The notes under the pieces are model-generated. The model did not search any database. It was given only the letters and a program-made list of their open reading frames with translations, and was not told the DNA's origin. Positions 9,606 to 64,000 of a stretch of 64,000 nucleotides of DNA are shown here, one piece after another; within the stretch, counting starts at the first letter, position 1, and each line of letters starts with the position of its first letter. The position numbers and the translations under genes were made by a program. The DNA is taken from the NCBI GenBank assembly GCA_016930485.1, contig JAFGGP010000050.1:15370-79369 (forward strand). Direction: 5' to 3'. Origin of the DNA: Candidatus Omnitrophota bacterium (lineage in GTDB: Bacteria > Omnitrophota > Gorgyraeia > JAFGGP01).

Positions 9606-9628
9606 TTATGTGAAGCGGGGGAGATATC

Positions 9629-16057: not shown

Positions 16058-16072
16058 CCTTCGAAAACTTAA

Positions 16073-16258: not shown

Positions 16259-16287
16259 TTGACTGATGCAAAACAGAGGAGTATTAT
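16259..16287 (+). promoter_or_regulatory. Putative sigma70 promoter (TTGACT-17 nt-TATTAT)
   Basis: Hexamers at 16259-16264 and 16282-16287, upstream of the nfeD/SPFH pair. Confidence 0.45.
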
Positions 16288-16336
16288 TTAATAATAGGCA
16301 CCTTTTCCCGTAACTCTTTTACAAGGGGGCTGATAG

Positions 16337-16780
16337 ATGAGTTTTCATATCTGGTGGGTTTGGATGGCAGTTGCCGCACTCTTGGTCGTCGGCGAGGTAT
16401 TTACCGCAGGGTTTTTCCTTCTATGGTTCGGTATTGCAGCGGCCATTGCAGGCATTGCGGCTATGCTGGGTTTGAATGCAGGTTGGCAGTGGGGAATTTT
16501 TGTGATTCTCTCGGCGGCCCTTTTTGGTACATCAAGAAAATTTGCAGAAAGGTTTACCAAACAACAGCCCCCGGGTATCGGTGCCGACCGTTTTGTCGGC
16601 AGACAGGGTGTGGTCTTAGAGGAGATCGACAATATTAAGAATACCGGGCGTGTTAGGATAGACAAGGAAGAATGGCGGGCGGACAGCGCAGGCGGCGATG
16701 TTATCCCAAAAGGGACAATTATTGTGGTAACCAGGTTGGACGGCACCCATGCAGTGGTTCAAACCGTAAAGGAGGGATAA
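16337..16780 (+). CDS. NfeD family membrane protein
   Basis: 147 aa with N-terminal TM helices and a C-terminal OB-fold-like segment ([12 protein letters not shown]). Immediately upstream of an SPFH gene, the canonical pairing. Confidence 0.8.
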
Positions 16781-16781
16781 C

Positions 16782-17669
16782 ATGTTTGTCGGATTTGCCA
16801 TTGTTCTATTTGTTATCTTTATTTTTGCCGCGACAGGCGTCAAGATTGTCCGGCCGTGGGAAAAGGCCTTGATAGAGCGCCTCGGCAAATACCAGCGCAT
16901 GGTGGGTAGCGGTCTTACTATTATCGTTCCTTTTATGGAGCGGATGATAAAAGTAGATATGCGAGAACAGGTGGTCGACGTGCCGCCCCAGGCGGTTATC
17001 ACCAAGGATAACGTTGCGGTAGCGGTAGACGCGGTTGTATATTATGAAGTAACCGATCCGGTTAAGGTAACCTACAATGTCGCCAATTTTTATCTGGCGG
17101 CGACGAAGCTCGCCCAGACAAATCTCAGAAACCTAATCGGTGATCTGGCGCTTGATGAATCGCTGACCTCGCGCGAGGTAATCAATACCAAGCTCCGTCA
17201 GATTCTTGATGATGCTACCGATAAGTGGGGTACACGGGTGACGCGTGTCGAACTTCAAAGAATCGAACCACCGAAAGATGTCACCGAGGCCATGCACCGC
17301 CAGATGAAGGCAGAACGCGATCGCCGTGCAATGATCCTTGAGGCCGAGGGACACAAACAGTCGGCAATCCTTAAGGCAGAGGGCGAGGCAGAGGCGATTA
17401 AAAAAGTAGCCGATGCCGAAAAGTATCAGAAAATAACCATCGCTTTTGGTGAAGCCGATGCTATTAAGACGGTATACGGCGCCATTCATGAGGGGAATCC
17501 CTCTAATGACTTAATCGCCATTAAATATCTTGAGGCACTCGGGAGGATAGCTAACGGCCAGGCCTCCAAGGTGTTTTTGCCGATCGAAAGCTCCGGCATT
17601 TTAGGAAGCATTGCCGGTATCGGAGAACTCTTCAGCAAGGAAGGCCGGCCCGAGGGCAAACAGGGCTAA
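16782..17669 (+). CDS. SPFH/band 7 (stomatin/QmcA-like) protein
   Basis: 295 aa with an N-terminal TM helix, [10 protein letters not shown] and [11 protein letters not shown] motifs and a coiled-coil AEGEAEA region. Confidence 0.9.
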
Positions 17670-17700
17670 GCAGCTTTTCTATTCCCCACCCAGAGGATTT

Positions 17701-18387
17701 ATGAAGAAAAAAATATCCATAGTATTGTATACATTTATATTGTTTGTAATCAGCGCATCTTTGATTTTGACATTGATAGTTCCAGAGACGTTTGATTATA
17801 TATATGGATATTTTCTGTTTCGGAAAATAGGGAACAATTTGACGGTTAATATCAAGAATGATTTCGATAAGGCTGCGAATGTGGCTTTTTGGGTTTTTGA
17901 TACCATTAAGGCTTTGGAGCCTTACCAGAGGAGTCGGTTTATGCCGGTCATAGATGACAACTTCCTGAATATATATAGAAGAGGATTTGGGTATTGTGAT
18001 CAAAGTGCCCACGTATATGCAACTATGATGTCCTGGCTCGGTTTCGAGACTCGGTTATTAATGTTGAAGAAAGAGGACGGTACTTCCCCTCATACGGTTG
18101 CCCTTGTTAAGGTCAACAACACATTTATGGTAGTAGATACTTACTTTGGATTTATTTTTGCTGATTCCCAAAAGAATCCGGTGGCACTTGATAAGTTGGA
18201 AGGTTCGCCCGTTTTTGATGATTATATTAATATGATTAATGTTAGACGTGCTGCTCAAGGGCGCGATAAAATAGAGTTAAAGGCATCGTGGTTCAAGAAC
18301 GGCATTTATTTTGAGACATTTCCTTATATAAAAGATATGAACGCAGGGGTTATTTATAAAAGGCTTTTGGATAAGCTACGACGTTAG
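17701..18387 (+). CDS. Transglutaminase-like (Cys-His-Asp) domain membrane protein
   Basis: GFGYCDQSAHVYATMM (Cys nucleophile), SPHTVALV and MVVDTYFG. Start trimmed to MKKKISIV at 17701. Confidence 0.55.
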   Translation: MKKKISIVLYTFILFVISASLILTLIVPETFDYIYGYFLFRKIGNNLTVNIKNDFDKAANVAFWVFDTIKALEPYQRSRFMPVIDDNFLNIYRRGFGYCDQSAHVYATMMSWLGFETRLLMLKKEDGTSPHTVALVKVNNTFMVVDTYFGFIFADSQKNPVALDKLEGSPVFDDYINMINVRRAAQGRDKIELKASWFKNGIYFETFPYIKDMNAGVIYKRLLDKLRR

Positions 18388-18506
18388 ACCCGCCTTAAGG
18401 CCCACCGACAGAAGTAAACATTGTATGATATTATATTAGTAACTTAATACAGAACAATAAGTTAGAATTATACTGGCTTTTTATTTCAAAAAAAGACGAC
18501 GGGCGG

Positions 18507-18535
18507 TTGACGGATATTTTGTTATATGCTATACT
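18507..18535 (+). promoter_or_regulatory. sigma70 promoter (TTGACG-17 nt-TATACT)
   Basis: Hexamers at 18507-18512 and 18530-18535, upstream of marR. Confidence 0.6.
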
Positions 18536-18577
18536 GTAAATAGGTTAACAGTTAGCCATTAAACAAGGAGGAAGTGG

Positions 18578-19063
18578 ATGTCGCTACCAAAGGAACTCAA
18601 GATGAAGGGCGGAATGCTGACAACCCAGCACGAGGCGCTGCTTAATATAGTACGGACAGCCACTATAATCGGCAAACTGTCCAATGCCTTCTTTGGCCGT
18701 TTTGGTATTACCGAGGCGCAATACAATGTGCTCATTGTCCTGAAACTCGCAGATAAACCGTTGACCCAGGTAGAAATTGGAGAACGACTTGTGGTGAGCC
18801 GAGCGAACATGACAGCGCTTTTGGATAAATTAGAAAAAAAGGCATATGTTATCAGGAAGAAAGTTGAAGGGGACAGGCGCATTTTTCAGATTGAGCTCAC
18901 TAAAGAGGGGAGGAAGCTGTTAGATAAGGTAGAGCCGGCCTATCTCCGGCAGGTAGAAAGCAATATGGCCTGTTTGAACCTCTCGGCATGCAAAGCGTTA
19001 AGCAGGGTATTAACGCTTCTTAGGGAAAACCTTCATATTACGGAGGAAGAAAGACATGAATAA
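18578..19063 (+). CDS. MarR family transcriptional regulator
   Basis: 161 aa with GITEAQYNVLIVL...LTQVEIGERLVVSRANMTALLDKLEKKAYV winged HTH. SD is AAGGAGGAAG. Confidence 0.9.
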   Translation: MSLPKELKMKGGMLTTQHEALLNIVRTATIIGKLSNAFFGRFGITEAQYNVLIVLKLADKPLTQVEIGERLVVSRANMTALLDKLEKKAYVIRKKVEGDRRIFQIELTKEGRKLLDKVEPAYLRQVESNMACLNLSACKALSRVLTLLRENLHITEEERHE

Positions 19064-22000
19064 TGCGAACTGCAAAAGCAGATCCTTTCAGGGGCTCATG
19101 GTAACGCAATTTCTCGGGGCCTTTAACGACAACGCCTTCAAGGTAGTGGTTTCGCTCCTGGCCCTTAGGAATATGCCACAGACCGCAGAAGGTGCGCAGT
19201 TTGTCAGCATGATCGGTGCATTATTTATTATTCCCTTTATACTGTTTTCGCCGTACGCCGGGTTTCTTGCCGATAGATTTTCAAAGCGGTCCGTTATTAT
19301 AGCAGCAAAAATTGCAGAGGCACTAGTGATGGGACTCGGATTTTTTGCCTTAGCTAGCGGAAATCTGCTTGGCCTGTGTGCAGTGCTTTTTCTCCTTTCT
19401 GCGCAAAGCGCCTTCTTCAGTCCTGCTAAATACGGTATCCTTCCCGAGATTCTTGATAATGCCGAACTTTCAAAAGGAAACGGCTATTTGCAGATGTGGA
19501 CGTTTCTGGCGATTATTTTTGGCACTGCCTGCGGCGGGCAGATTGTAACTATCTTTTTCGATATCTCGTATGCTTCGATATTTTTTATTTTTATCTCTGC
19601 TGTTGGTATAGCTGCGAGCATCTTCATCACTCGGGTGCCGGCACACCCTGCCCAGCAGTTTGAAGTCAATGCGTTCCGAAATACAGTACGTACCATAAAA
19701 GACATCAAGCGAAATAAACCGCTTTTTCTGACACTGGTTGCTATCTGTTACTTCTGGTTTTCAGGAGCGGTATTTCAGATGAATGCTATTCTATTCGGCA
19801 AGACCGTACTTGTACTTTCTGAAATTCAGGTGAGCATTCTACTGACAGCGGCCGCTTTTGGGATTGGATTGGGGAGCGCGCTTGCCGGCCGTCTTTCCGG
19901 CGGCAAGGTAGAGTTTGGACTTGTGCCGGTCGGCGCCCTTGGGATGACAGCGTTTTATCTGATGTTAGGAAACCGCCTATTGAGTTTTTCACAGACATTG
20001 CTTTTTGTCTTGTTTATTGGCATATTCGGAGGGTTTTTTATTATTCCGCTCAACGCATACTTTCAACAGCAGAGCCCCCCGGCGGAACGTGGCCGGTTCC
20101 TTGCCGCCTCTAATCTGCTTTCTTCAATGGGCATACTTTTTGCGTCGGTGATATTATGGTTTTTGGGGACGGTAATCGGTTTTGATGCGGCACGCATCTT
20201 TTCAATCATGGGGTTGCTTTCATTCGCGGCGATGCTTTATATCTTTAGGACGCTGCCAGACACATTCCTGCGTTTTTTCAACTGGGTACTGACCCACACG
20301 ATCTACCGCGTGCGGGTTTCGGGGATTGAGCATATTCCACAGGAAGGAGGCGCCCTTATCGTTTGTAATCATGTATCGTATGTTGACCCGTCACTTTTAC
20401 TCGCCTCGGTCCAACGGCCAATTCGTTTTCTGATATACCGAGGGATATACGATAACGTTTTTCTCAAACCATTTTGCAGGATCGTGAAGGGCATTCCTGT
20501 ATCGCTGTATGACGGGCCCAAGGCAATGATGAAATCGCTCAAGGAGGCGCGCGAGGCGATAGAGGCCGGTGATCTTGTCTGCATTTTTGCCGAAGGCGGA
20601 CTCACCAGAACCGGAAACATGCTTCCTTTTAATCAGGGATTCGAGCATATCATGAAAGACCTTGACGCCCCGATTATTCCTGCGTGTATCGACAGTATCT
20701 GGGGCAGCGTCTTTACTTATGAAAACGGCAGATATTTCTGGAAGATGCCGAAACGATTTCCGCATCCGATAGCTGTTTGCTTTGGTGCGGCGCTGCCCTC
20801 TTTTTCCAAAACCCATCAGGTGCGTCTTGCGGTGCAGGAGCTCATGGCGGACGCATTTGCGATGCGGGGACCGGAGCAGAAAAAACTGCACATAGAGTTT
20901 ATCCACGAGGCCAAGAAACATCCCTTTAGGTTCTGTATGGCCGACTCAACCGGTGTGCGACTGAGCTATATAAAAGTATTGACTGCGGTGATGGTTATGT
21001 CACAACAGCTGTTTGGAAAGGATGAGGAAGAATCTCCGGATGAGATGGTAGGGGTATATCTGCCCGCGTCATGTGCGGCCTCACTGGTAAACGGGGCCAT
21101 TCTTTTTTCAGGAAAGATACCGGTTAACCTTAATTTTACCGGGTCGAAGGAAAGCCTTGATTCCGCCGTCAGGCAGTGTGGTATGCGACGGATTGTCACC
21201 TCACGGAAGTTTCTTGAGAAGGCGTCCTTGGAAGAGCGTGAGGGCATGATATTTCTCGAAGATATCCAAAAAGAGATTACTCAGTCAGAGAGGATCAAAA
21301 CGCTTCTTGCGGCACTGCTCCTGCCACCCGCCCTTATCAAGATATTTTTTGTAAAAGGAAACAAGGTTAACACAAATGATGTAGCGACGATTATCTTTTC
21401 AAGCGGCAGCACGGGCGAACCAAAAGGGGTGATGCTGACCCATACAAATATTTTTTCTAATATCGAAGGCCTTTACCAGGTGCTCAATCTTCGCAGAGGC
21501 GATGTGGTCATGGGGGTTTTACCTTTTTTTCATTCATTCGGTTTTACCGCAACACTCTGTTGTCCGGTAGGTGTGGGTATCGGGGTAGTGTATCATGCTA
21601 ATCCGCTTGATGCCGGAACGGTCGGCCGGCTCATTAAAAAATATAAGGCAACGGTATTGATGGGGACCCCGACCTTTATCTCTGCCTATATGAGAAAATG
21701 CACGAAGGAGCAGTTTCAGAGCCTTCGGTATGTAGTGGTCGGCGCCGAGAAGCTTAAACAGAATGTCTCAGAGGCATTTTATGAAAAATTTAATCTTATT
21801 CCTTTCGAGGGTTATGGGGCTACCGAGCTTTCTCCTATTGTGTCTATGGGGATACCGGATTATATAAGCAGAAAAGAAGATATAACACAAACCGGCCATA
21901 AAGAGGGAACGGTGGGGCATCCTATTCCCGGCGTTGCGGCCAAAATAGTGAATCCTGATAGCTTTGAGCAACTTTCCACAGATGAGGAAGGACTTTTGCT

Positions 22001-52184: not shown

Positions 52185-53651
52185 ATGTCAATAGCCGCAG
52201 CAAAAAAACACCGCTTTTTCGCAGGCACCCTCCTGCTTTTTATACTCTTTTTGTCTCTACGTCTCTATCAGCTGGGATCCCGGGATTTGTGGTATGATGA
52301 GGTTATAAGCTTCTACTACGCACAACAACCCATGGTGAGCGGGAATGCCCCTTTGTATTACGGTATCCTGCATTACTGGCTGAAGATAGCCCCTTTTTCC
52401 GAGTTTGTCCTGCGTTTTCCCTCGGCAATCTCCAGTTTTATGTCCGTCATCCTCGTTTTTCTTCTGGGCAAGGAGCTTTTCGGAAAAAAAACCGCGCTTT
52501 TTGCCTCGCTTTTAATGGGGCTTTCTCCGTTCCAGATATGGTATGCCCAGGAGGCCCGCACCTACAGCATGATGTTATTTTTTGGGGCGCTTTCATTATA
52601 TCTCTTTCATCGTGCATTACGTTACAGGCGCGCGACACTCTGGTGGGGCTTTATGGCAGCGAGCCTCCTGGGGATCTACACCAATTACTTTTTCTTCGTC
52701 CTTTTCTTTGTTCAGGTAACGTATACTCTTATCTTTTTCAAAAAAGTGCGGTTAAAACTGCGGGAGATAATCCCTTTTCTCTGTGTCGGGGCGCTTTTTC
52801 TGCCGTATCTGGGCCCTTTTTTACAAAAATTCTTTACCATAAGGAATGGTTTCTGGATACCGCGCCCCTCTCTTTATTCACTGTGGGTTACCATAGAGAA
52901 CATTATTCTCGGATATAATGCCCATCGCGAGGTGTATGCACTAACCAGTTTGTTAGTTACGATTCTTTTTGTCGCGACGATGCTCACATTGCAAGACAAA
53001 GAGTTGCGGCCCCGGATTATATTTTGTCTGTATTTCTTTCTGGCCCCCGTTCTCTTTTCCTTTTTGTTCTCCCGTCTTTTCTTTTCGGTGTACATAGACC
53101 GGGCCCTGATTATTGTCACGCCGGCGCTCTACCTCCTTATCGGTCTGGGGATCGCCGCTATGTGGGAGAAGGCCATTATCGTCATGTGCACCATCCTGTG
53201 TTACGGTCTGCTTGCGTATTACACCGGTGAGATGCCCATGCCGGTTGGGCACCATATCGGGACCTATGTGAAGCGGCCCATACGGCCGATAGTGGCGTTT
53301 ATCAGGGATAACAGGGGTGGGGACGATATATGCGGGTTTACCAACTACGGGCTACAGCTCCCTTTTGTTTTTTATGAGACGGACAAGACAATGGAGACTT
53401 ACTATTTTTTCGATCCCCGAATTTTAGATACCACTTGGAAGCAGCCCTTTGGGGAGGGGCGATTGTGCGTACCCATGCATAAAATAGAGACCTTGCCTTT
53501 TAAGAGATTATGGCTTGTTGCCTCGAACTGGAATAGAGATGGGGGGTTATGCGAGAATTCCCGATCGGTTAAAGAGTGGTTGGACAACCACTTTACCTTG
53601 CAGCTATGCAAGAAGTTACATGGGTCCTGGGTATTTGCGTATGAGCGCTGA
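52185..53651 (+). CDS. Glycosyltransferase family 39 (ArnT/PMT-like) membrane protein
   Basis: About 488 aa polytopic protein. A first-loop DE motif (LWYDEVISFYYA) and the WYAQEARTYS segment are typical of GT-C/GT39 enzymes. Confidence 0.75.
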   Translation: MSIAAAKKHRFFAGTLLLFILFLSLRLYQLGSRDLWYDEVISFYYAQQPMVSGNAPLYYGILHYWLKIAPFSEFVLRFPSAISSFMSVILVFLLGKELFGKKTALFASLLMGLSPFQIWYAQEARTYSMMLFFGALSLYLFHRALRYRRATLWWGFMAASLLGIYTNYFFFVLFFVQVTYTLIFFKKVRLKLREIIPFLCVGALFLPYLGPFLQKFFTIRNGFWIPRPSLYSLWVTIENIILGYNAHREVYALTSLLVTILFVATMLTLQDKELRPRIIFCLYFFLAPVLFSFLFSRLFFSVYIDRALIIVTPALYLLIGLGIAAMWEKAIIVMCTILCYGLLAYYTGEMPMPVGHHIGTYVKRPIRPIVAFIRDNRGGDDICGFTNYGLQLPFVFYETDKTMETYYFFDPRILDTTWKQPFGEGRLCVPMHKIETLPFKRLWLVASNWNRDGGLCENSRSVKEWLDNHFTLQLCKKLHGSWVFAYER

Positions 53652-54813
53652 AGAACGGATAGTGAGACATATACTGGGGTGGGTTACGGGGCGTACCGAA
53701 CCGGGCGAGACGCCGGATTTCAATGCCTCTTCCGTCGATTGGGGATACCTCGGCGATTTACTCGCTCATCACGAGCTTCTTGCCTTTGCCTATGAGGCAT
53801 TTAAAGAATATGGCCTTACCGCTCCGGGGGCGATGCAGGAAAAATTAAAAAACACATATTACTGCACGCTGCTGCGTAACGAGCGTCTTATGGATGAGCT
53901 CGTCAGGATCACGCGCCGGTTTCGGGAAGCAGGTATACGCGTGGCCGCCCTCAAAGGGGTGGCCTTTCTCCCTGATATCTACACGAGTCTTCCCGTCCGG
54001 TCGATGACCGATATCGATATCCTGATCCAGGACGCGGATTACCAGAAAGCGGCAGGCCTTTTATGCGAGATGGGGTATTACAAGGATTTCTGGGGGCTGA
54101 CCGAGGAGTACTGGCGGACAAAGCAGTGTCACGTGGCCTTTTACAAAAAAGATCACAACAGGCTTTCAGGGTTTGTCGAACTGCACTGGGCACTTGATGT
54201 AAAAAGAGGGGGTGAGACGATTCTCCCGCGTCTGTGGGAAAGAACGCGGGAGATATATGCAAATAACGGTCCGGCGCTGCAGACCCTTTCACCCGAGGAC
54301 GCGCTTTTGCACATCGCCCTTCACCAGCGAAGGTTCGGGAAGATGCTGTGCCTGAAGTATGCCGTGGATCTCTCTTTACTCATTCAGAAATATAAAGATA
54401 CGTTTGATTGGGGGTATGTGCTTGAAGAGGCGAAAAGCGGGAAGATGCGAACCTCGCTCTATTTTCTTTTATCGCAGGCAGCGATGTTTCTTGAAGTCCG
54501 TCTTCCTCCTTCTGTAGAAGAGGGGCTTGGGGTGTCTGGGCGGAAGAAGAGACGCATCCATCATTTTATCAGAACAAGCGCCTGGCTTCCGTACGAAAAA
54601 AGAGACACGCGGAAATTATATCTGAAAGGGCATTTTCTTCTCTATGACCACCCTGCCGAACCCCTCACCGCTATTTTAAACATCCCCAGGGAACAGTTTG
54701 CCAAGTATTACTGTCTTACGCCGTATGCCAGGAAGACCGGTTTTTTCTATCACACCCGTTTTGCGTACATACCGTTTAGAACGCTGTGCGATCTTATACC
54801 GAAGAGGCGCTGA
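53641..54813 (+). CDS. Uncharacterised nucleotidyltransferase family protein (PF14907-like)
   Basis: AALKGVAFLPDIY...RSMTDIDILIQ motif. The ATG at 53641 overlaps the GT39 stop by 11 nt. The longer track ORF (53515) was rejected. Confidence 0.7.
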   Translation: MSAEERIVRHILGWVTGRTEPGETPDFNASSVDWGYLGDLLAHHELLAFAYEAFKEYGLTAPGAMQEKLKNTYYCTLLRNERLMDELVRITRRFREAGIRVAALKGVAFLPDIYTSLPVRSMTDIDILIQDADYQKAAGLLCEMGYYKDFWGLTEEYWRTKQCHVAFYKKDHNRLSGFVELHWALDVKRGGETILPRLWERTREIYANNGPALQTLSPEDALLHIALHQRRFGKMLCLKYAVDLSLLIQKYKDTFDWGYVLEEAKSGKMRTSLYFLLSQAAMFLEVRLPPSVEEGLGVSGRKKRRIHHFIRTSAWLPYEKRDTRKLYLKGHFLLYDHPAEPLTAILNIPREQFAKYYCLTPYARKTGFFYHTRFAYIPFRTLCDLIPKRR

Positions 54814-55268
54814 TGCAGACAGAGCAGCCAGAGAAAAAGGCCGTATCATTCTATGAAGCCTCTGGTTTCAGTATGTGGCCTTTTTTGAAAAAGGGAGAGC
54901 GCATCATCATCAGGGAGACGCCGCCGGATGAACTGAAAAAGGGCGACGCGATACTCTACCAGAGAGACGGGGCGGTCGTATGCCACAGGGTTATTAAAAA
55001 ATACTGCGGGGGAGAGGGTATTATTTTTTTTACCAGAGGGGACAATTCGTTCGCCGCTCCGGAGCGAGTTTTGGCGTCCGAGGTGCTCGGTAAGGCCATT
55101 GCCGTAAAAAAGGGGAAGAAGATAACGTCTCTGACTTCAGGAAAAAACCGGCTTATAGGACTCTGTATTATCGCAACCGCCCCGTTTCGTGTACGGCTTA
55201 TACGCATCCTGGGGCCGGTCTACCGGCGCTTCAAGAGATTCGCAGGGGGTCTGCGTACTTTCGTTTGA
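54813..55268 (+). CDS. S26/S24-type signal-peptidase-like serine peptidase
   Basis: SGFSMWPFLKKGERIII (Ser nucleophile context GxSMxPxL) and GDAILYQRDGAVVCHRVI. ATGA-type overlap with the upstream stop. Confidence 0.65.
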   Translation: MQTEQPEKKAVSFYEASGFSMWPFLKKGERIIIRETPPDELKKGDAILYQRDGAVVCHRVIKKYCGGEGIIFFTRGDNSFAAPERVLASEVLGKAIAVKKGKKITSLTSGKNRLIGLCIIATAPFRVRLIRILGPVYRRFKRFAGGLRTFV

Positions 55269-55341: not shown

Positions 55342-55674
55342 ATGAAAGACTCTACCGTATTTGATAAAAATCCCGATATCGTAAGCCGGACTATAGAAGA
55401 TGAAACTATCCTTCTGCCGGTTTACAGAACCTCGGAGGAAATTAACTGTCTTTATACCCTGAATGAATCGGCGGCGGCTGTCTGGGATTTAATCGACGGC
55501 AGGCGGTCATTGGGGGAGATTAAAGAGGCAATGCTCAGGCAATTTGAAGCGACGCCCGAAGAGATAGATAAGGAGATGGGAATTCTCTTGAAAGATTTAA
55601 CCGAGATCAAGGCCATTACCCCGGTCAAAGAAACAAAGGGCGCAGGGCGCGCGGGGCGGGCCACTCATACATGA
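55342..55674 (+). CDS. PqqD family protein (RiPP recognition element-like)
   Basis: 110 aa with the typical PqqD pattern DIVSRTIEDETILL...LNESAAAVWDLIDGRRSLGEI...EIDKEMGILLKDL. SD GGGAGG lies before the ATG at 55342. Confidence 0.8.
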   Translation: MKDSTVFDKNPDIVSRTIEDETILLPVYRTSEEINCLYTLNESAAAVWDLIDGRRSLGEIKEAMLRQFEATPEEIDKEMGILLKDLTEIKAITPVKETKGAGRAGRATHT

Positions 55675-56855
55675 AACACATAGAAACAGCCCATTTCTAC
55701 AGCAGGCTATACGATAAAGAAGAGCAGCGCCCCTATTCCGGGCAGCTCGAACTCACCTACCGCTGCGATCTCGACTGCATTCATTGTTACTGCAAGGGCT
55801 CGGAAGAGGTACCAAGTCACAGGTCACAGGTCGCAGATCACAGGTCGAAATTAACAGAGGAAACTTTTCCGAAAAAAAAAGAACTAACTACCATTCAATG
55901 GAAAAGGATTTTAGACGAAGTCCAAAAAGAAGGATGCCTCTGCCTTACCCTGACCGGCGGAGAGCCCTTGATCAGGGATGACTTTCTTGAGATCTACGGT
56001 TACGCGAAAAGGCTCGGTTTTATCATTACCATTTTTACCAACGGCCAGTCATTGACGAATGAGATTATTGACTATCTGGAAAAATACCCGCCCTTTTCGA
56101 TAGAAATTACCCTTAACGGCATTACAAAAAATACCTACGAATCGATTACCCGGGTTGACGGTTCCTTTGAAAGGGTGATGGAAAATATCCGTGCCCTCCG
56201 CGCGAGGAGATTGCCTCTTATTATAAAGGCGAACTGCCTGAAACAAAACAGACACGAGATCGCAAAAATAAAACAATGGGCAGAAGATTTACTGGGAAAA
56301 TCAGCTAAAATGACTGAGATGTGTGACGTGCGACCTGAGACATGTGACATTAGAAAGTATAATTTTAAATACGACCCCATGATTTTCCCCCGACTCAATG
56401 GAGACAGGGCCCCGTGCGAGCACCGACTTTCTTTTGAGGAGTTGACACAGCTCCGCCGGCAGGACCCGGATATCTGGGGAGAGTATCGGGAAGGATGCGA
56501 GGCCGGGCTGCCGGATTTGACACGGGAGGCGCGGTTTCTCTACCGTTGTAACGCCTGGATGAAACATTTTTTTATTAATCCTTACGGCAGGCTGAAGTTC
56601 TGTCAGTTTAGTGAGAAATTCAGCGTTGATTTAAGGGAGACGTCGTTTCACGAGGGCTTTTACCGGGCTTTTCCGAAACTCCTAACCCCAACATTTACGA
56701 CAGATTCGCGCTGCCAGCATTGCTCGCTTCGCCCCCTATGCTACCATTGCCCGGCGCGCGCATATCTCGAGACAGGAAACGAGGAGGCGCCGGTACCGTA
56801 TTACTGTGAATTGGCAAAACATATAGCAGATCAAATAAAATTGCTAAATTGTTAA
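55671..56855 (+). CDS. Radical SAM/SPASM-type peptide maturase (paralog 1)
   Basis: CDLDCIHCY (CX3CX2C), LTGGEPL and a C-terminal Cys cluster CQHCSLRPLCYHCPARAY. ATGA overlap with pqqD. Carries two heptamer-array insertions. Confidence 0.85.
   Translation: MKHIETAHFYSRLYDKEEQRPYSGQLELTYRCDLDCIHCYCKGSEEVPSHRSQVADHRSKLTEETFPKKKELTTIQWKRILDEVQKEGCLCLTLTGGEPLIRDDFLEIYGYAKRLGFIITIFTNGQSLTNEIIDYLEKYPPFSIEITLNGITKNTYESITRVDGSFERVMENIRALRARRLPLIIKANCLKQNRHEIAKIKQWAEDLLGKSAKMTEMCDVRPETCDIRKYNFKYDPMIFPRLNGDRAPCEHRLSFEELTQLRRQDPDIWGEYREGCEAGLPDLTREARFLYRCNAWMKHFFINPYGRLKFCQFSEKFSVDLRETSFHEGFYRAFPKLLTPTFTTDSRCQHCSLRPLCYHCPARAYLETGNEEAPVPYYCELAKHIADQIKLLNC
55816..55850. repeat. Intragenic heptamer array (GTCACAG-like x5), in frame in radical SAM 1
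   Basis: GTCACAG GTCACAG GTCGCAG ATCACAG GTCGAAA encodes SHRSQVADHRS. The segment is absent from the paralog at 57418. Confidence 0.85.
56324..56358. repeat. Intragenic heptamer array (CTGTGAC-like x5), inverted copy of 55816..55850
   Basis: CTGAGAT GTGTGAC GTGCGAC CTGAGAC ATGTGAC encodes part of TEMCDVRPETCD. Its reverse complement matches 26 of 35 positions of the first array. Confidence 0.8.
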
Positions 56856-56965
56856 ACTGATGCGTTGTTACATTGATAAACCGCTAAACTGTTTTATTGT
56901 TAAATTGTTTCATTGCTTAATTGTTGCGCTGATGCATTGTTAAATTGCTACAGCATTGAGAGAGT
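56856..56965. repeat. Heptamer-unit array (AATTGTT-like), left arm flanking the four-helix-bundle ORF
   Basis: TGTTAAACTG...TTGTTAAATTGTTTCATTGCTTAATTGTTGCGCTGATGCATTGTTAAATTGC. Confidence 0.75.
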
Positions 56966-56968: not shown

Positions 56969-57344
56969 ATGAAAAAATATTTAGAGTTAAACGATATAGA
57001 TGCTTACCGAATTGCTTTGGATTTGTCTAATTATATTTGGAACATTGTTATCAAATGGGATTATTTTGCCAAAGATACCGTCGGCAAACAGTGGGCCAAA
57101 GCTATTGATTCTATCTCGGCTAATATTGCCGAAGGTTTTGACAGGTATTTTAAAAAAGATAAAGTTACTTTTTATCGTTACAGTTATGGTTCTATTAATG
57201 AATCTTTAGATTGGCTTGAAAAGGCAAATAGACGAACCTTGTTAAAAAAACAATGAATATCAACATATACTGAAGGAATTAAAAAAATTGCCAAAAGAAA
57301 TTCATGCATTAATTAATTTTACTAATGAACGCCTCAAAAAGTAA
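56969..57344 (+). pseudogene. Four-helix-bundle protein (23S rRNA intervening-sequence protein family), apparent +1 frameshift in an A7 run
   Basis: The N-terminal 95 aa (LDLSNYIWNIV...ISANIAEGFDRY...FYRYSYGSINESLDWLEKA) match the family. Frame 0 stops at 57254-57256. The expected C-terminus (NEYQHILKELKKLPKEIHALINFTNERLKK) continues in the +1 frame at 57252..57344. The A7 run is at 57244-57250. Confidence 0.6.
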
Positions 57345-57417
57345 CAGTTTAACAATTTGTCAGTGAAGCAGTTAGGAATTAAACGATACAACAATGGAGC
57401 AGGGCAGCAATTGAACA
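57345..57417. repeat. Heptamer-unit array (AACAATT-like), right arm complementary to 56856..56965
   Basis: CAGTTTAACAATTTGTCAG...CAGCAATTGAACAATGG, ending at the radical SAM 2 start codon. Confidence 0.7.
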
Positions 57418-58614
57418 ATGGAATATAAAGATTACGACCAATTTTGGCAAAAGATACATCAGTCCGCACGGGAAAAAGGTGTGCCGCTGCGTGTAATGTT
57501 TGAACTGACCTACCGGTGCAATTTTAACTGTGCTCACTGTTATATACCGACTGATTTTCGAACAAAGGGTGAGCTGACTACGCAAGAGGTGTTTTCCGTG
57601 CTTGATCAGCTCAAGGCGGCCGGGTGCTTTTATCTGGGGTTTACCGGCGGTGAGCCGTTCATGCGCGCTGACTTCATGGATATCCTCTGGTATGCTAAGC
57701 GCGCCGGGTTTCAGGTGATTATCTATACCAACGGATCGTTGATCGATGAGAAGAAAGCCGCGGCATTGGCGAAGTTCAGCCCGAATAAAGTGGACATTAC
57801 CATACCCGCCTTGAGCAAAGAGGCCTTTGAGCGCATTACCGGGGTAACAGGCTATTGGGACAGGGTATTTCATGCAATTGACCTGCTGCATAGCCTCGGT
57901 GTTCCTCTGGGGTTTAAGACATGCCTTTTGAGGGAAAACGAGTTGGAGATTGCTCAGATACAGGAATTTGCCGCCTCTTTAGGGTCGCTGTATCGTCTGG
58001 ATACAATGCTTTCCCCGCGGCTGGATGGGGATCCAGAACCGTACTGTTATAGGGGTACATTACATTTAGCCAAAAGTCATGGAATGCCAGCTATAAGTAA
58101 TAGAATGACAAATTTCAAATGCCAAATGACAAATGAATTCCAAATGTCAAATGACAAATTAAAAGACAAAAATATTTTATTTACATGTGGCGCGGGAAGG
58201 ACGCAGGCCGCTGTCACGCCGCTTGGTGAACTGAAGCTATGTGTGATAATCGACCGGCCGAAAATTACAATAGACACAGGACACATGACACAGGACACAA
58301 GAGAAAACTTACAAATAACACGTAACACGTCGCACGTCACACGTAATAAAAATGAGGGGGTGTCGCTGAGTGAAGCATGGGAGAAGTTAAAAGAGACAAC
58401 AGAGAATATAGAAGCGGGTAAAAAGCATCAGTGCCCGGAATGCGAGCTTGCACCGTATTGCAAGTGGTGTCCGGCGCAGAGCTGGCTGGCACATGGGACG
58501 TTTACAGGATGCGTTCCGGAAAGCCGTGCCTGGGCACAGATGGTGCAAGAGTCGCTTTGCAGTGACAGAGAAAAAATGCTCAAGGGGTATCAGTCTAAGG
58601 CAGGTATCATATAA
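57418..58614 (+). CDS. Radical SAM/SPASM-type peptide maturase (paralog 2)
   Basis: CNFNCAHCY, FTGGEPF and a C-terminal CPECELAPYCKWCPAQSW cluster. Carries two heptamer-array insertions. Confidence 0.85.
   Translation: MEYKDYDQFWQKIHQSAREKGVPLRVMFELTYRCNFNCAHCYIPTDFRTKGELTTQEVFSVLDQLKAAGCFYLGFTGGEPFMRADFMDILWYAKRAGFQVIIYTNGSLIDEKKAAALAKFSPNKVDITIPALSKEAFERITGVTGYWDRVFHAIDLLHSLGVPLGFKTCLLRENELEIAQIQEFAASLGSLYRLDTMLSPRLDGDPEPYCYRGTLHLAKSHGMPAISNRMTNFKCQMTNEFQMSNDKLKDKNILFTCGAGRTQAAVTPLGELKLCVIIDRPKITIDTGHMTQDTRENLQITRNTSHVTRNKNEGVSLSEAWEKLKETTENIEAGKKHQCPECELAPYCKWCPAQSWLAHGTFTGCVPESRAWAQMVQESLCSDREKMLKGYQSKAGII
58104..58170. repeat. Intragenic heptamer array (AATGACA-like), in frame in radical SAM 2
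   Basis: AATGACA AATTTCA AATGCCA AATGACA AATGAAT... encodes NRMTNFKCQMTNEFQMSNDKLKD. Same unit as the intergenic arrays at 47990 and 49600. Confidence 0.85.
58274..58345. repeat. Intragenic heptamer arrays ((GACACAN)x4 then (NACACGT)x4), in frame in radical SAM 2
   Basis: Encodes DTGHMTQDTRENLQITRNTSHVTRN. The first half nearly duplicates the left arm at 43916, and the second resembles the left arm at 63489. Confidence 0.85.
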
Positions 58615-58648: not shown

Positions 58649-59656
58649 ATGGCAAACATGAAAAAGACATACGGCGTAACGTTTAAGATAGCGGATGTCA
58701 TCGTTAAAATAAAAAGCCGTTTTCCCATGGCCCCGCCCGGTGATAACGCGCAGGGCCACGAAATTAACAGTATGTTTTTACCCTTTGTCTACACCGGAGA
58801 CCGTAAACCGCACATAGCCATCGATGTCGAGGTGGCCAGGAACCTTCCGGATATACCGCCAGGGGCAAAGGAGCTCTTTCACGCGAATCACCAGGGAGAG
58901 GGTGCGAGTTGGAGGCTGTTTCAAAACAGCAAGGGCTTCATATACCGGGGTTCTGGAGTTACAAGAGAGCAGATAGCAACTATCAATCCCCGGTTTACCC
59001 GGATAGAGTGCACTCTGTTGGCCAGGGATTGCACGCATTGCCCCGGAGAGGCGACCAGAAAGGTCATACAGGAAAATAACGGCATGGTATGGTTTTTGTT
59101 TGACGTTGCCTATGATTTTCTGCAGATACTGCTTTTGCAGTATCTTTCCCGGGGGGGTCGGGCAATCATGCCCCACGCGGCCGGGATTCGGGATGCCACC
59201 GGCGACGGGTTTCTCTTTGCCGGAAAGTCAGGGAGCGGTAAGACCACAACAGCCAAACTGTGGGCCAGATACACAAAGGCAACTGTACTCAACGACGACA
59301 GGGTCATTATTAAACAGCGCGGGAAAAGATTTTTTATATACCCCTCACCATGGAGCGGGCAGTTTCAGAATTCTCCGTGGACGCCCCTTTGTGCGGCACC
59401 GCTCAAAAATATATACTTTATTCATCACGCACCTGAAAATATCTTGACCGGGCTTTCTGAAAAGGAGGCGTTTACTCTTTTGTGGCAAGTGATGTTTCCA
59501 CCTTTTTGGGATAGGGGGGCGTTAGAACACACTCTCTCTTTCTGTCACAGGCTGAGCAGGGATGTTGCCTGCCACCGGCTTGGCTTTATCAATAACAGGG
59601 CTATTATCGATTTTGTGCGTACAGCGAATACACAAACCATGAATGAACTATACTAA
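58649..59656 (+). CDS. HPr kinase-related (HprK C-terminal domain-like) P-loop protein
   Basis: 335 aa. Walker A FAGKSGSGKTTTA is followed by VLNDDRVII, resembling the HprK-like kinases of peptide natural-product clusters. Confidence 0.6.
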   Translation: MANMKKTYGVTFKIADVIVKIKSRFPMAPPGDNAQGHEINSMFLPFVYTGDRKPHIAIDVEVARNLPDIPPGAKELFHANHQGEGASWRLFQNSKGFIYRGSGVTREQIATINPRFTRIECTLLARDCTHCPGEATRKVIQENNGMVWFLFDVAYDFLQILLLQYLSRGGRAIMPHAAGIRDATGDGFLFAGKSGSGKTTTAKLWARYTKATVLNDDRVIIKQRGKRFFIYPSPWSGQFQNSPWTPLCAAPLKNIYFIHHAPENILTGLSEKEAFTLLWQVMFPPFWDRGALEHTLSFCHRLSRDVACHRLGFINNRAIIDFVRTANTQTMNELY

Positions 59657-60095: not shown

Positions 60096-61475
60096 ATGCA
60101 AACAGATAATGACACTATTACCATAGGATATTTCGACTGGTTGGCAAGTGAGTTTATCAGTGCTATTGTGCTACGTGATACCTTTGTTAGGGGGCTATCG
60201 CGTTATGTAACTATTGTGCCTATTCCAATTACACGGCCTGATGAAGTAAAGGAGCATTACAGACGCATCGGTGAATACGGATTAGATTATCTGTATGTTG
60301 ACATGTTTAACTCCTTCATAGAATCGTTTATAGTACGGGAGGCATTAGGGAGCCGTATCCGGTTTATCGTGCATTGCCATGCGGCACTTTCATGGATATC
60401 CAGATATATGTATGTGCTTCCACTTTTGCGAAGCTCAGATATTTTGTGTACCCCGTCGCACTACGCACAAAAGTCGCTGCGCCTTCTTTCCCCACGATTT
60501 GAATCCTACCGTGTTCCATACTGTCTTGATGTATGTGCTATCCAATCGAGTTTGCCAAAAGTGCCCCGTGCACACAAAAAATCCATTGCTTTTATGGGCA
60601 GGCTCGTTCCTTCGAAGGGTATTGGCCTTTTGATTGAATGCATGCCTGAGATTATACAGCGTGTGGGAGATACACAACTTACTATCATAGGACCTCTGAG
60701 TGGCGAAGGAAAAAGCGACCGACCTATGTCGCCGTATGTTGTTTCTCTCAAACGACTTGTGCACGAGCTTCATTTAGAAGAAAATATCCATTTTGCAGGT
60801 GCGTGTTTTGGTCCTGAAAAATACCAATTACTTGCTCATTCAGATCTTTTTATAAACCCCACATGCACGCTTGATGATACCTTTTCCGTGTGCAATATAG
60901 AGGCCTTTGCCTGTGGGATACCGGTTATCACCACTGACTGGGCAGCACACAGAGAGATCATTACGCATGAGAAAACGGGTTTTCTCATAGGCGTTCGGTG
61001 CGATGAAATTGAGTCCGAAAGAGTTGCGGAAAAAGAGCAGTTGATTTCTGCCGCGGTTAACCTGCTTTCCGATGAAACGCTTTGTTCCACAATGGGGCAG
61101 AATGCCTATAAAGAGGCGCTTCGTTATGACTACGCTACTGTCTTACCCGATTTTATTCAGCACTTAAAAAAACAGATGCCAACAGCCGGTGGCATTGGAT
61201 GGGAGTCGGTTAAAGATAAGACACTATGCGATTTTAAAGACCTGTTCAACACAGAAATGCATTTTTTTCTTCACATTGATCATCATATGCGTTCTAGAAC
61301 TTTTTCTGATTTGTATAATCTGTGTACCTCAAGAAAAAAAAGAAGGGTCACTGCCGAGGAGATTGATAACGTGAAACATAAAACACAGGCGGATGAGTTG
61401 CTTGAGAAAATAAGGCGGGATTTTCTGTATTCTCTTTTGCCTGAGGAAAATCGTTGTGCCTTAATCCAAGAATAG
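60096..61475 (+). CDS. GT4-like (GT-B fold) glycosyltransferase 1
   Basis: 459 aa with a FMGRLVPSKGI segment and the C-terminal donor-binding motif FINPT...CNIEAFACGIPVITTDWAAHREIITHEKTGFLI. Confidence 0.75.
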   Translation: MQTDNDTITIGYFDWLASEFISAIVLRDTFVRGLSRYVTIVPIPITRPDEVKEHYRRIGEYGLDYLYVDMFNSFIESFIVREALGSRIRFIVHCHAALSWISRYMYVLPLLRSSDILCTPSHYAQKSLRLLSPRFESYRVPYCLDVCAIQSSLPKVPRAHKKSIAFMGRLVPSKGIGLLIECMPEIIQRVGDTQLTIIGPLSGEGKSDRPMSPYVVSLKRLVHELHLEENIHFAGACFGPEKYQLLAHSDLFINPTCTLDDTFSVCNIEAFACGIPVITTDWAAHREIITHEKTGFLIGVRCDEIESERVAEKEQLISAAVNLLSDETLCSTMGQNAYKEALRYDYATVLPDFIQHLKKQMPTAGGIGWESVKDKTLCDFKDLFNTEMHFFLHIDHHMRSRTFSDLYNLCTSRKKRRVTAEEIDNVKHKTQADELLEKIRRDFLYSLLPEENRCALIQE

Positions 61476-61895: not shown

Positions 61896-63476
61896 ATGAA
61901 GTCTTATATATTAAAAAAAGATTATGAGGACGTTTCTCTGGAAGGCCGGGAAAATTTCCGTATTACCTCCGGCAATTCCGTAATTGCGTATAAAAACTGC
62001 TTTTTTTCATATATCCAAAGGCATGCCCCGATCATTTCCATTGATGAGACAATCGACAAAGAGGAGTTGAGGCGCATCTTGGAGGCGCCGAGGGCCATAT
62101 TGATCTCTGTTAATAAAACGCCGCGAACCGAGCTTTTGAGAGGCGTTCGGCTACGGCATATGACGCTCTCTCTCGGGACCCTGTTATGTCCGCAGTATCT
62201 GTATGAGATCTGCGGTCTTTCTTCGGCAGAGACGCACCTGCTCTCTACCCAGTTTCAGGCGCAGAGGTTGCAACAGGTTCTTGGCGCGTATTTTCCTCAT
62301 ACTGCCGTGTTTCCCCCGCGCATCGATACAGACTTTTTTGTACCACCGGCTAAAAGACAGAGGGCAGATGCCCGGAAAAGACAGGGTATTCACCAGGGAG
62401 AAACCCATATAGTGTATGCGGGCAGGTGGCTTGTTGACAAGGGGATCTGTCAGATCCTGCGTATGTTAGAAGTCTGGCACCCTGACAGGTGCGTCTTTAC
62501 CTTTGCCGGCAATGTCGACGAAGAGCAGAATATCTCAAACACGCATTATGACCACAGGGGTTTCGGCACCTTTCTTGCCGGTGAAGTCAGCCGGTGCCGG
62601 AATAAAAACGTACGCTTTCAGAAGGCGAAAAAGCCGGAAGAACTCAGAGAGCTTTTCTGGTCGGCCGACATGTTTATTAATCCTTCGATCCAGCCGGATG
62701 AGAACTTCGGCGTTACGGCGCGTGAGGCAGTCGCATGCGGGGTGCCGGTGGTAACGACCAATTTCTGCGGCCTCACACCCCTGGCCGATGCCATGCCCTG
62801 GGGTGGGGTCGATACATATCCCACGCGCCATGGTTCCCGTTTCAGTCTCAGGGCCCTATACCAGACGCTGAGGAGCGCACTGAAGGATACGGGCGGAGTA
62901 TCGTCTACCTTTCTTCGTTCATATGTACTGAAAGAGTGCGATGAGGAGACGGCCCGGAAAACAGTGGCCGAATCTCTGAGGCGGGTTTCCAGCATGCCTG
63001 CCGAGCTGCCGCGTGACAGAAACGAGGTTGAACGCGATATCAAACGGGTGCTGTGGGAGAAAGCAGATACCCGTGCGCTTTCGTTAGTTATAGAGGGAAG
63101 GCGCAAGAAGACGGAGGGGTTATATAACGGGGTAGATGGGGAGGCACTCTCTAGTTATGACGGCGAGTGTCTCCATCATGCCTTTCCGCTGGTGCAGGGG
63201 TTGTATTCATCGGCGACTGCCCCGCCGGTTGCCGCCAAAGACAGCAAGTGGCGGGGGTTTTTTCGTATCGGGCTCTGGGAAAAAGAACGGGCCGTTGTTG
63301 AGTTTAGCTTTCCTGCCTGGCGCTTCAGGAAGTATACGGCCACAGAATGGAGTAGTCTGACCGGTTGCCTCATTCAAGAGAAAGGTGGGGACTCTATCTT
63401 TATGCCCCGCGGGAAGAAACAGTTATCGCTGGTGCAGGGCCTGATCGATGCCGGGTATCTTGTGTCTGACTTTTGA
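61896..63476 (+). CDS. GT4-like glycosyltransferase 2 with C-terminal extension
   Basis: 526 aa with YAGRWLVDKGI and FINPSIQPDENFGVTAREAVACGVPVVTTNF, followed by an uncharacterised tail of about 170 aa. Confidence 0.65.
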   Translation: MKSYILKKDYEDVSLEGRENFRITSGNSVIAYKNCFFSYIQRHAPIISIDETIDKEELRRILEAPRAILISVNKTPRTELLRGVRLRHMTLSLGTLLCPQYLYEICGLSSAETHLLSTQFQAQRLQQVLGAYFPHTAVFPPRIDTDFFVPPAKRQRADARKRQGIHQGETHIVYAGRWLVDKGICQILRMLEVWHPDRCVFTFAGNVDEEQNISNTHYDHRGFGTFLAGEVSRCRNKNVRFQKAKKPEELRELFWSADMFINPSIQPDENFGVTAREAVACGVPVVTTNFCGLTPLADAMPWGGVDTYPTRHGSRFSLRALYQTLRSALKDTGGVSSTFLRSYVLKECDEETARKTVAESLRRVSSMPAELPRDRNEVERDIKRVLWEKADTRALSLVIEGRRKKTEGLYNGVDGEALSSYDGECLHHAFPLVQGLYSSATAPPVAAKDSKWRGFFRIGLWEKERAVVEFSFPAWRFRKYTATEWSSLTGCLIQEKGGDSIFMPRGKKQLSLVQGLIDAGYLVSDF

Positions 63477-63488: not shown

Positions 63489-63636
63489 GTCACACGTAGC
63501 ACGTTGCAGGTAACACGTCGCACGTAACGCAGGAAAGGCACAATCAGTTTCCGCGGGACGTGATACTTGTTATGTTTACTTGATGCGGATAATATAGAAC
63601 CTGATACCTGCTACGTGATACTTGATAAAATGAAAC
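63489..63636. repeat. Heptamer-unit imperfect hairpin (CACGTAN arm / NTACGTG-GATAC arm)
   Basis: TCACACGTAGCACGTTGCAGGTAACACGTCGCACGTAACGCAGG ... GACGTGATACTTG...CTACGTGATACTTGAT. Confidence 0.65.
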
Positions 63637-63639
63637 ACA

Positions 63640-63756
63640 TATCATATAAAAACTTCAGTCTGAAAACCCATCAGAAAAACTGGCACCTCAGGCAGAAAAG
63701 TTTTGGATTTAGTTTTTTGATGGATTCCGCATCGAGTGCGGAATGACAGAAAATAA
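63640..63756 (+). other. 38-codon relic duplicating the 5' end of radical SAM 3
   Basis: MKHISYKNFSLKTHQKNWH... The first 57 nt are about 84% identical to 63834..63890. The frame then runs into repeat sequence and stops. Confidence 0.5.
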
Positions 63757-63833: not shown

Positions 63834-64000
63834 ATGAAGAACATATCATACAGAGAGTTTAGTCTACAAACCCATCAGAAAAACTGGCGCGCCGGGCGGC
63901 CGAATGTTTGCCAGTTTGAGTTAACTTTTCGGTGTCCTCTACGCTGCAAGCACTGTTACTGCAGTTGCTATAATAACGGCCGCGATGTAGCTCGGGAGCT
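63834..64000 (+). CDS. Radical SAM peptide maturase (paralog 3), 5' partial, runs off the window
   Basis: MKNISYREFSLQTHQKNWRAGRPNVCQFELTFRCPLRCKHCY. Same ELT(Y/F)RCxxxCxHCY N-terminal architecture as paralogs 1 and 2. Confidence 0.75.
   Translation, partial: MKNISYREFSLQTHQKNWRAGRPNVCQFELTFRCPLRCKHCYCSCYNNGRDVARE

Follow-up and report, generated by a model that had tools for sequence, protein, structure and literature searches.

Our analysis of 64,000 nt from a Candidatus Omnitrophota bacterium (GenBank assembly GCA_016930485.1, contig JAFGGP010000050.1, positions 15,370 to 79,369 of the forward strand; this whole stretch is called the window below) concerns a predicted kinase gene at 58649-59656 and the small genes that follow it. 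We favour, with moderate confidence, the reading that this gene encodes the precursor-peptide kinase of a pathway for peptides that are made on ribosomes and modified after translation (RiPPs), a pathway that would resemble the one for 'linear polyphosphorylated peptides' (LPP), would include radical S-adenosylmethionine (SAM) maturases, and would use the C-terminal Ser or Thr of the precursor as the probable phosphate acceptor. The parts of this reading differ in strength. From its predicted fold and catalytic residues the gene product is most probably a kinase, its action on a precursor peptide is likely, and the C-terminal residue is slightly favoured as the acceptor, as precursor conservation and analogy to known systems suggest. 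A preliminary description of the same DNA had proposed an HprK-like kinase that phosphorylates precursor C-termini in a non-lasso context, possibly followed by glycosyl or nucleotidyl transfer.

Fold and catalytic residues of the predicted kinase

The product of the kinase gene contains FLFAGKSGSGKTTTAKLW and carries the Walker A motif GKSGSGKTT at residues 192-200 (nt 59222-59248). An identical sequence is annotated as a hypothetical protein in a metagenome-assembled genome (MAG) of Candidatus Omnitrophica (locus tag JW844_08055). An AlphaFold2 model computed with 42 homologues as input reached a predicted local distance difference test (pLDDT) score of 92 and a predicted template modelling (pTM) score of 0.89. 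In a Foldseek search against the PDB, the best 50 matches of the full model were all phosphoenolpyruvate carboxykinase (PEPCK; top E 3e-7), and these matches cover both domains. Modelled alone, the C-terminal domain (pLDDT 91) returned only PEPCK and HPr kinase/phosphorylase (HprK/P) among its best 50 PDB matches, including L. casei 1kkl_B (E 8e-5, TM-score 0.51, target-length normalised) and the M. pneumoniae HprK/P 1knx. A PDB sequence-profile search with the kinase was uninformative, as it returned mainly generic P-loop proteins, with HprK 1jb1 and PEPCK only at E ~5e-3.

In the alignment of the 42 homologues, H176, G192, G195, G197, K198, T200, D216 and P234 are invariant, and so is the P-loop pattern G192xxGxGKxT200, while D217 is conserved in at least 90% of the sequences. 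The same His-Lys-Asp-Asp set is essential in lasso-peptide kinases by mutagenesis (PMC9266682), and D158A/D159A mutants of the lasso kinase PsmK have also been tested (PMC6993621). Since H176, K198, D216 and D217 match the set established by mutagenesis in lasso kinases, we consider the gene product very likely to be an active phosphotransferase with a P-loop and the HprK/PEPCK fold. The earlier HprK-like assignment is thus borne out by the model, the structural matches and the homologue alignment.

At the family level, PF27840 'ScmC' is matched by the exact kinase protein and by 43 of 44 database homologues; this membership is taken from precomputed annotation, with no re-scoring. The best NCBIfam match is ScmC (TIGR04249; 24.3 bits, cutoff 125), and HprK-related kinase B scores 19.5 bits (cutoff 200). 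The NCBIfam equivalogs ScmC, HprK_rel_A and HprK_rel_B were rejected for the kinase and ten relatives, all scoring far under the cutoffs. Placement among the HprK-related NCBIfam families, which the preliminary description had suggested, therefore gave no curated assignment, and the nearest groups are PF27840 and the LPP-type kinases described below. With 26,683 representatives of 50%-identity clusters at E<=1e-3, and 2,448 when the threshold is E<=1e-30, the ScmC superfamily is very large. Elsewhere, ScmC-like domains are fused to GNAT, methyltransferase and IVP domains, as in one relative (P0174) in which an IVP-like N-terminus is joined to a ScmC-like domain; such fusions fit a tailoring role and do not identify the substrate.

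Precursor family and conserved gene set

Two small genes that encode putative precursor peptides follow the kinase gene. Precursor 1 (ATG at 59808) begins after a 152-bp gap, which places the P-loop protein directly 5' of it, as first described, and opens with MSQQKEFKPVITRVELSPEQAVLQCSCY. Precursor 2 sits ~1.6 kb past precursor 1. The ribosome-binding site AAAGGAGG precedes both genes, and their leader DNAs are 78% identical (repeat D3). A profile built from four precursors retrieved 202 proteins at E<=0.01, so the family has at least 202 members; because of this retrieval, we regard both precursors as real genes. No Pfam or NCBIfam model matches the family.

Conservation was evaluated on 124 sequences, comprising 120 of the 202 profile matches that were listed, the two precursors of the window and two from the related locus L001. 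The first 27 residues are nearly invariant (M-x-[RK]-K-P-K-F-x-P-x-I-T-R-[IV]-K-L-N-P-E-Q-A-V-L-x-C-x-C-[YFW]), and the residues after them are hypervariable, with one or two more Cys. The C-terminal residue is Ser in 116 sequences and Thr in the remaining 8, across 122 distinct 8-residue tails. With an interior Ser+Thr content of 20%, the probability of this by chance is ~1e-86, assuming independent sequences. The Ser/Thr tails first noticed in the two precursors (…SGSS and …ATST) are thus a feature of all 124 family members. Positions -2 to -6 show only an enrichment of S/A/T/G/V, which indicates that the fixation is specific to the last residue. The sole other conserved hydroxyl belongs to the Thr of PxITR, within the stretch presumed to bind the RiPP recognition element (RRE). 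Between the invariant Cys of CxC, 51% of the precursors have Ser or Thr, and A, N or D is also frequent there.

In more distant ScmC systems linked to radical SAM genes, from hosts such as Acidobacteriota, Planctomycetia, Anaerolineae and Elusimicrobia, the precursor beside the kinase has a canonical YxxPx[IVL] leader, and six of eight end in Ser or Thr (L004, L005, L006, L007, L008 and L022). These six short precursors, at L004 9427-9606, L005 6094, L006 2569, L007 1077, L008 1347-1643 and L022 10541, have an 'ALACG'-like junction. The six systems form a link between LPP/lasso-type leaders and the precursor family of Omnitrophota.

Six related loci were compared: L001-L003, from Omnitrophota and Elusimicrobiota MAGs (kinase identity 33-42%), and L025-L027, which were found independently via the precursor. 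All six contain the kinase, at least two radical SAM genes, a signal peptidase I (SpI)-like peptidase and a precursor of the same family. All six also carry an ABC exporter gene, which adjoins the kinase gene in five and is separated from it by one radical SAM gene in L026. A PqqD-type RRE is present in five of the six, the exception being L025, whose contig is cut upstream; it is conserved beside the kinase and precursors in L001-L004, L026 and L027. An NTP_transf_5 protein is present in the window, L001, L002, L003 and L026. The SpI-like peptidase occurs in every precursor-bearing locus read. It is fused to the ABC exporter in L025 (3498-5663), an arrangement like that of C39-peptidase exporters, while in L003 (4793-6580) and L013 (2703-4292) its fusion partner is NTP_transf_5. 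These fusions tie the three functions to one pathway, and the exporter fusion strongly suggests that the SpI-like protein is the leader peptidase. The variable neighbours are glyco-genes (Wzy_C, PMT_2, GT2, WecA-like Glycos_transf_4 and PIG-L).

Relation to known systems and the candidate acceptor

LPPs were described in Bacillota by Popov et al. (Nat Commun 2026; PMC13381572). Their core genes encode the kinase LppK, the RRE LppB, the SipW-type leader peptidase LppS, the NTP-transferase LppN and the exporter LppD (PMC13381572). LppK polyphosphorylates core Ser3, beside the leader cleavage site; the leader carries the motif YxxPxVLxHQxIxFETxxS, and the unphosphorylated precursor is poorly cleaved (PMC13381572). 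That paper calls LPPs restricted to Bacillota and mentions neither radical SAM enzymes nor the phyla of the present loci (PMC13381572).

Paenibacillus (L009) and a Butyrivibrio plasmid (L028/L029) each yielded an LPP-type cluster next to a lasso-type one, and the kinases were compared with the family profile by hhalign. The LPP-type kinases of Butyrivibrio (99.65%, E 5e-25, 270 columns), Paenibacillus L009 (99.5%, E 4e-23, 196 columns) and Paenibacillus L012 (99.3%, E 3e-20, 151 columns) align over longer stretches and more strongly than the lasso-type kinases of Butyrivibrio (95.5%, E 1.3e-8, 128 columns) and Paenibacillus L009 (95.6%, E 1.3e-8, 56 columns), which assigns the kinase of the window to the LppK/ScmC type. 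On these sequence comparisons, the LppK-like kinases of LPP clusters, and not the lasso kinases, stand closest to it among the characterised types. In L009 (Paenibacillus sp. 2RAB27, 9332-19150) an LPP-type cluster (...FETAQSWNKG..., like the published LppA) directly adjoins a paeninodin-like lasso cluster. The lasso precursor there (MQTKKVWETP...ITHFS) ends in Ser and has its own kinase and NTP_transf_5, an arrangement as in Popov et al. 2026.

Of the five LPP core genes, the window contains four, which encode the SpI-like peptidase, the discrete RRE, the kinase and the PF14907 NTP-transferase; the fifth, for the ABC exporter, is found in the homologous loci only. Further similarities are the nearly full-length alignment with LPP-type kinases, a precursor leader with a related aromatic-x-P-x-[IVL] RRE-binding motif, the invariant P-E-Q of the precursors in register with the F-E-T cleavage site, and a location among glycosyltransferase genes. 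In contrast to LPP clusters, two to three radical SAM/SPASM enzymes are added, and every close relative has at least two radical SAM genes. Phosphorylation is therefore not expected to be the sole core modification, whereas the LPP product is linear and made without other core-modifying enzymes. The leader reads KFxPxITR[IV]KLNPEQAVLxCxC instead of the LPP motif, core position 3 has no Ser, and CxC and the C-terminal Ser/Thr are invariant in window-type precursors. Instead of Bacillota, the clusters of the present type occur in Omnitrophota, Elusimicrobiota and further uncultivated phyla.

The lasso HPr-kinase homologues PadeK, ThcoK, SyanK and PsmK phosphorylate, often repeatedly, a conserved C-terminal Ser of the precursor (PMC9266682, PMC6993621, PMC8498205). 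A lasso kinase recognises the C-terminal Ser, the rest of the peptide mattering little (PMC8498205), and in pseudomycoidin the nucleotidyltransferase-like PsmN puts one or two hexoses on the phospho-Ser (PMC6993621). As in lasso kinases, the kinase of the window has the His-Lys-Asp-Asp set and a P-loop, and its precursor family has a strictly conserved C-terminal Ser/Thr where Ser is the acceptor in lasso systems. As in pseudomycoidin, a PF14907 nucleotidyltransferase-fold partner lies in the cluster. With the NTP_transf_5 protein of the Butyrivibrio lasso cluster, likewise a PF14907 member, it shares 24% identity (E 5e-13). Homology to the two lasso-cluster kinases is confined to the catalytic core (56-128 columns). 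Against Pfam Hpr_kinase_C (PF07475; cutoff 33.3 bits) the Butyrivibrio lasso kinase scores 41 bits, above the cutoff, and the Paenibacillus one 28.5, slightly below it; the kinase of the window reaches only 11.8 (E 0.17). Neither a lasso cyclase (Asn-synthase-like) nor a B2 protease was present among the ten proteins of 52-64 kb or in L001-L003 and L025-L027. The non-lasso context proposed earlier is consistent with this absence, but it is a context already described, since it corresponds to the LPP core module, here extended by radical SAM enzymes. The suggested nucleotidyl or glycosyl transfer step gains a PF14907 homologue of a lasso-cluster nucleotidyltransferase in the cluster, and glycosylation would be a prediction from that homology.

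In architecture, the cluster also resembles the SynChlorMet cassette (TIGR04248-TIGR04251), in that it has two radical SAM/SPASM proteins together with a PqqD-like and a ScmC-like protein. This cassette was defined bioinformatically, no product of it is known to be characterised, and its precursor was described as unidentified. The proteins of the window lie far under the equivalog cutoffs of ScmC, ScmD, ScmE and ScmF, with 21.8 bits for ScmD (TIGR04248, cutoff 100), 69.6 and 66.8 for the two radical SAM proteins against ScmE (TIGR04250, cutoff 400), and 53.3 and 62.9 against ScmF (TIGR04251, cutoff 400).

The general idea of HprK-like kinases in a non-lasso RiPP context is thus already published for LPP. 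Literature and Pfam/NCBIfam searches found no description of an LPP-type module joined with two to three radical SAM enzymes, of this module in Omnitrophota, Elusimicrobiota or other uncultivated phyla, or of a large CxC precursor family with an invariant C-terminal Ser/Thr. Literature searches on SynChlorMet/ScmC, on PF14907/NTP_transf_5 and on RiPPs combining HPr kinase, radical SAM and PqqD returned nothing relevant, and no paper characterising the ScmC superfamily outside LPP was found. The action of HprK-like kinases on RiPPs has so far been shown only in lasso peptides (2016-2019) and Bacillota LPPs (2026), and the present locus joins most of the LPP module to radical SAM chemistry in deep-branching uncultivated phyla. 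Its precursor family supplies something that ScmC/SynChlorMet-type cassettes appear to lack, with a single obvious candidate acceptor residue. A defined kinase-substrate pair would open the ScmC superfamily to biochemistry, and would test for a shift of acceptor position between the LPP, lasso and radical SAM-linked branches.

Several lines of evidence make the C-terminal Ser/Thr the most plausible acceptor. Both experimental precedents use a conserved Ser of the precursor, the last residue is the only conserved hydroxyl of the core, and a C-terminal Ser/Thr is kept in most of the distant radical SAM-linked relatives. All 124 precursors have Leu in the column that is in register with LPP Ser3; a Ser at this position was accordingly rejected as the acceptor. 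The invariant C-terminal residue therefore offers a clear and testable target site for the predicted peptide kinase.

Other observations weigh against this assignment. LppK, the closest characterised-type kinase, targets Ser3 and not the C-terminus, and it refuses Thr at the acceptor site (PMC13381572), whereas 8 of the 124 precursors, precursor 2 among them, end in Thr. LppN was inactive in a heterologous host (PMC13381572). The precursors of L010 and L013 end in Tyr and Phe, respectively, beside kinases that look intact, and in L003, a close relative whose kinase also appears intact, the precursor ends in Asn. This L003 precursor (10991-11125; MKKVQKTDKKKPKKHKFNPVITRIKLQPEQASLSCCYPAAPSTRN) is short, has CC in place of CxC, and may be degenerate. 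On the Butyrivibrio fibrisolvens plasmid pNP243 (L029, 2841-2990) an apparent lasso precursor beside a lasso-type kinase ends in Arg, so that the C-terminal Ser rule may not hold even for all lasso clusters, unless L029 has a further precursor gene that was missed. In addition, NTP_transf_5 was not found in L025, where the contig is cut upstream of the precursor, and its match in L027 is weak and on the opposite strand. The kinase itself lies under the curated cutoffs of all NCBIfam HprK-related families (ScmC, 24 against 125 bits). The C-terminal phosphorylation first proposed thus keeps an invariant candidate residue, and the site itself stays a prediction in view of the Ser3 specificity of the LppK relatives and the few precursors that end in N, Y or F.

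One alternative, to which we assign a smaller but appreciable chance, is that the protein is a precursor kinase with its acceptor near the leader-core junction, as for LppK Ser3, or at the conserved leader Thr, and that the C-terminal Ser/Thr serves another step such as direct O-glycosylation (by GT4 or PMT_2 enzymes) or recognition by the radical SAM enzymes, the exporter or the peptidase. The kinase is indeed much nearer the LPP type than the lasso type, Ser or Thr occupies the middle of CxC in about half of the precursors, glycosyltransferase-rich clusters could use the Ser hydroxyl directly, and some related precursors lack a C-terminal Ser/Thr despite an intact-looking kinase. Near the junction, however, no hydroxyl is conserved, as the Leu in the Ser3 register and the frequent A, N or D within CxC illustrate; the leader Thr lies within the RRE-binding stretch and is unconserved in the wider YxxP-type relatives; and a conserved Ser is the acceptor in both precedents. 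We consider it improbable that the ScmC-like protein phosphorylates a sugar or other small molecule for the neighbouring transferases, or acts as an ATP-dependent scaffold, with no peptide phosphorylation. The best structural matches belong to a small-molecule kinase, PEPCK, and extend across both domains, and the clusters are embedded in polysaccharide-type genes. Yet across distant phyla the kinase gene is tightly linked to the RRE and to the precursor, often as a direct neighbour of the latter, whereas the glyco-genes differ; its full-length homologues stand in LPP-type clusters and are of the kind proven to be peptide kinases; and GNAT and methyltransferase tailoring domains occur as fusion partners in relatives.

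An ordinary HprK/P of carbon catabolite control, lying near small genes by chance, is extremely improbable. The nucleotide-binding fold, the His and Asp-Asp positions and a P-loop of the GxSGxGK[ST] type are shared with HprK/P and PEPCK, and a weak match to PF07475 exists, but it stays far below the cutoff, TIGR00679 (HprK/P) gave no match at E<=0.01, and a Pfam scan detected no Hpr_kinase_N (PF02603) domain in the kinase. The HPr signature GIH[AT]RP, and likewise GIHxRP, is absent from the 64-kb window (the former sought in every frame), no phosphotransferase system context accompanies the gene, and all close homologues lie in RiPP-type clusters. The predicted substrate is a RiPP precursor, as opposed to HPr or oxaloacetate. 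Family scores, domain content and context thus effectively refute a bona fide HprK/P, and the grouping with ptsH-linked enzymes, raised in the preliminary description as a possible outcome, is not what was found.

For the favoured precursor-kinase pathway we then propose a working model. The discrete PqqD-type RRE would bind both precursors via the near-invariant leader KFxPxITR[IV]KLNPEQAVL, and the two to three radical SAM/SPASM enzymes would modify the Cys-containing core (CxC plus one or two downstream Cys), probably by cross-linking. The ScmC-family kinase (His176, Lys198, Asp216/217) would move at least one phosphate from ATP to a precursor hydroxyl, most likely that of the invariant C-terminal Ser/Thr. 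NTP_transf_5 and the glycosyltransferases may add sugars onto the phosphate, as in the lasso peptide pseudomycoidin. The SipW-type peptidase would cut the leader, probably after the invariant P-E-Q, as its register with the LPP F-E-T suggests, and the ABC exporter seen in the homologous loci would secrete the product. A bolder version, which we regard as unlikely, is that the product is not a free secreted peptide: a radical SAM cross-linked Cys peptide, (poly)phosphorylated on its C-terminal Ser, would be joined by a phosphodiester to a glycan or cell-envelope polymer. Such peptide-phosphoglycan conjugates would form a new and widespread RiPP class in Omnitrophota, Elusimicrobiota, Acidobacteriota, Planctomycetota and others. 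In its favour, the clusters are constantly surrounded by Wzy_C, PMT_2, WecA-like, PIG-L and GT2/GT4 genes.

Gene content of the cluster

The features of the cluster are listed in the table. The PMT_2 glycosyltransferase has a 45%-identical copy within the L003 cluster. The translation of the NTP_transf_5 protein, a candidate for elaborating the phosphate, shows a TDIDIL metal motif, and that of the SpI-like protein shows GFSMWP, HRV and GDN motifs. The best NCBIfam matches of maturase 1 (AhbD, NirJ2, PqqE and ScmE) and of maturase 2 (MftC, NirJ and PqqE) are all under cutoff. No ABC exporter gene lies within the window, and the cluster extends past its 3' end, because the third radical SAM gene is cut there. 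Downstream DNA was sought via contigs encoding the kinase, and the sole result was a shorter Logan contig, which stops at the kinase.

Features of the predicted RiPP cluster, listed in + strand order between 52.2 kb and the end of the window
Feature	Position	Strand	Evidence and remarks
PMT_2 (GT-C, ArnT/PMT-like) membrane glycosyltransferase, 5' cluster edge	52185..53651	+	Pfam PMT_2 63 bits
NTP_transf_5 nucleotidyltransferase-fold protein (LppN/PsmN-type)	53620..54813	+	PF14907 165 bits
Archaeal/SipW-type signal peptidase I-like protein (LppS analogue)	54813..55268	+	TIGR02228 sigpep_I_arch 55.0 bits, cutoff 51.85
Discrete PqqD-type RRE, predicted leader-binding chaperone	55342..55674	+	Pfam PqqD 48.4 bits, cutoff 23.4
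Predicted radical SAM/SPASM-type maturase 1	55671..56855	+	Pfam Radical_SAM 83 bits
Inserted gene for a 23S-IVS four-helix bundle, between maturases 1 and 2	56969-57256	+	
Predicted radical SAM/SPASM-type maturase 2	57418..58614	+	Pfam Radical_SAM 95 bits
Predicted ScmC-family (LppK-like) P-loop kinase	58649..59656	+	335 aa; open reading frame (ORF), PF27840, AlphaFold2 model, Foldseek, hhalign
Putative precursor peptide 1, 70 aa	59808..60020	+	leader MSQQKEFKPVITRVELSPEQAVL, CxC, variable core, end ...GVSGSS; hmmsearch E 9e-18
GT4-family glycosyltransferase, between both precursor genes	60096..61475	+	Pfam Glycos_transf_1 88 bits
Putative precursor peptide 2, 65 aa	61576..61773	+	same leader and CxC, end ...GDATST; hmmsearch E 6e-21
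Second GT4-like glycosyltransferase, extended C-terminus	61896..63476	+	Pfam Glycos_transf_1 54 bits
Third radical SAM gene, first 55 codons (…CQFELTFRCPLRCKHCYC…)	63834..64000	+	translation; runs off window end

Repeats occur at several places in the cluster. An 8-nt unit (AAATTGTT-like), repeated about 14 times in tandem at 56838-56949 and present as an inverted copy at 57338-57358, flanks the IVS-type gene on both sides, and this repeat-bracketed gene may be a small mobile or insertion-prone element. Inside the maturase 2 gene, 25-nt and 22-nt repeats (58111-58160 and 58319-58340) encode low-complexity insertions (NFKCQMTNEFQMSNDK; HVTRN...), and they recur at 63493-63528, 3' of the last glycosyltransferase gene. 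A 64-nt direct repeat (D2; 80% identity) at 63630-63693 and 63834-63897 is a duplicated 5' end of the third radical SAM gene (MKNISYREFSLQTHQKNW...CQFELTFRCPLRCKHCYC), and its upstream copy heads a short 59-aa ORF.

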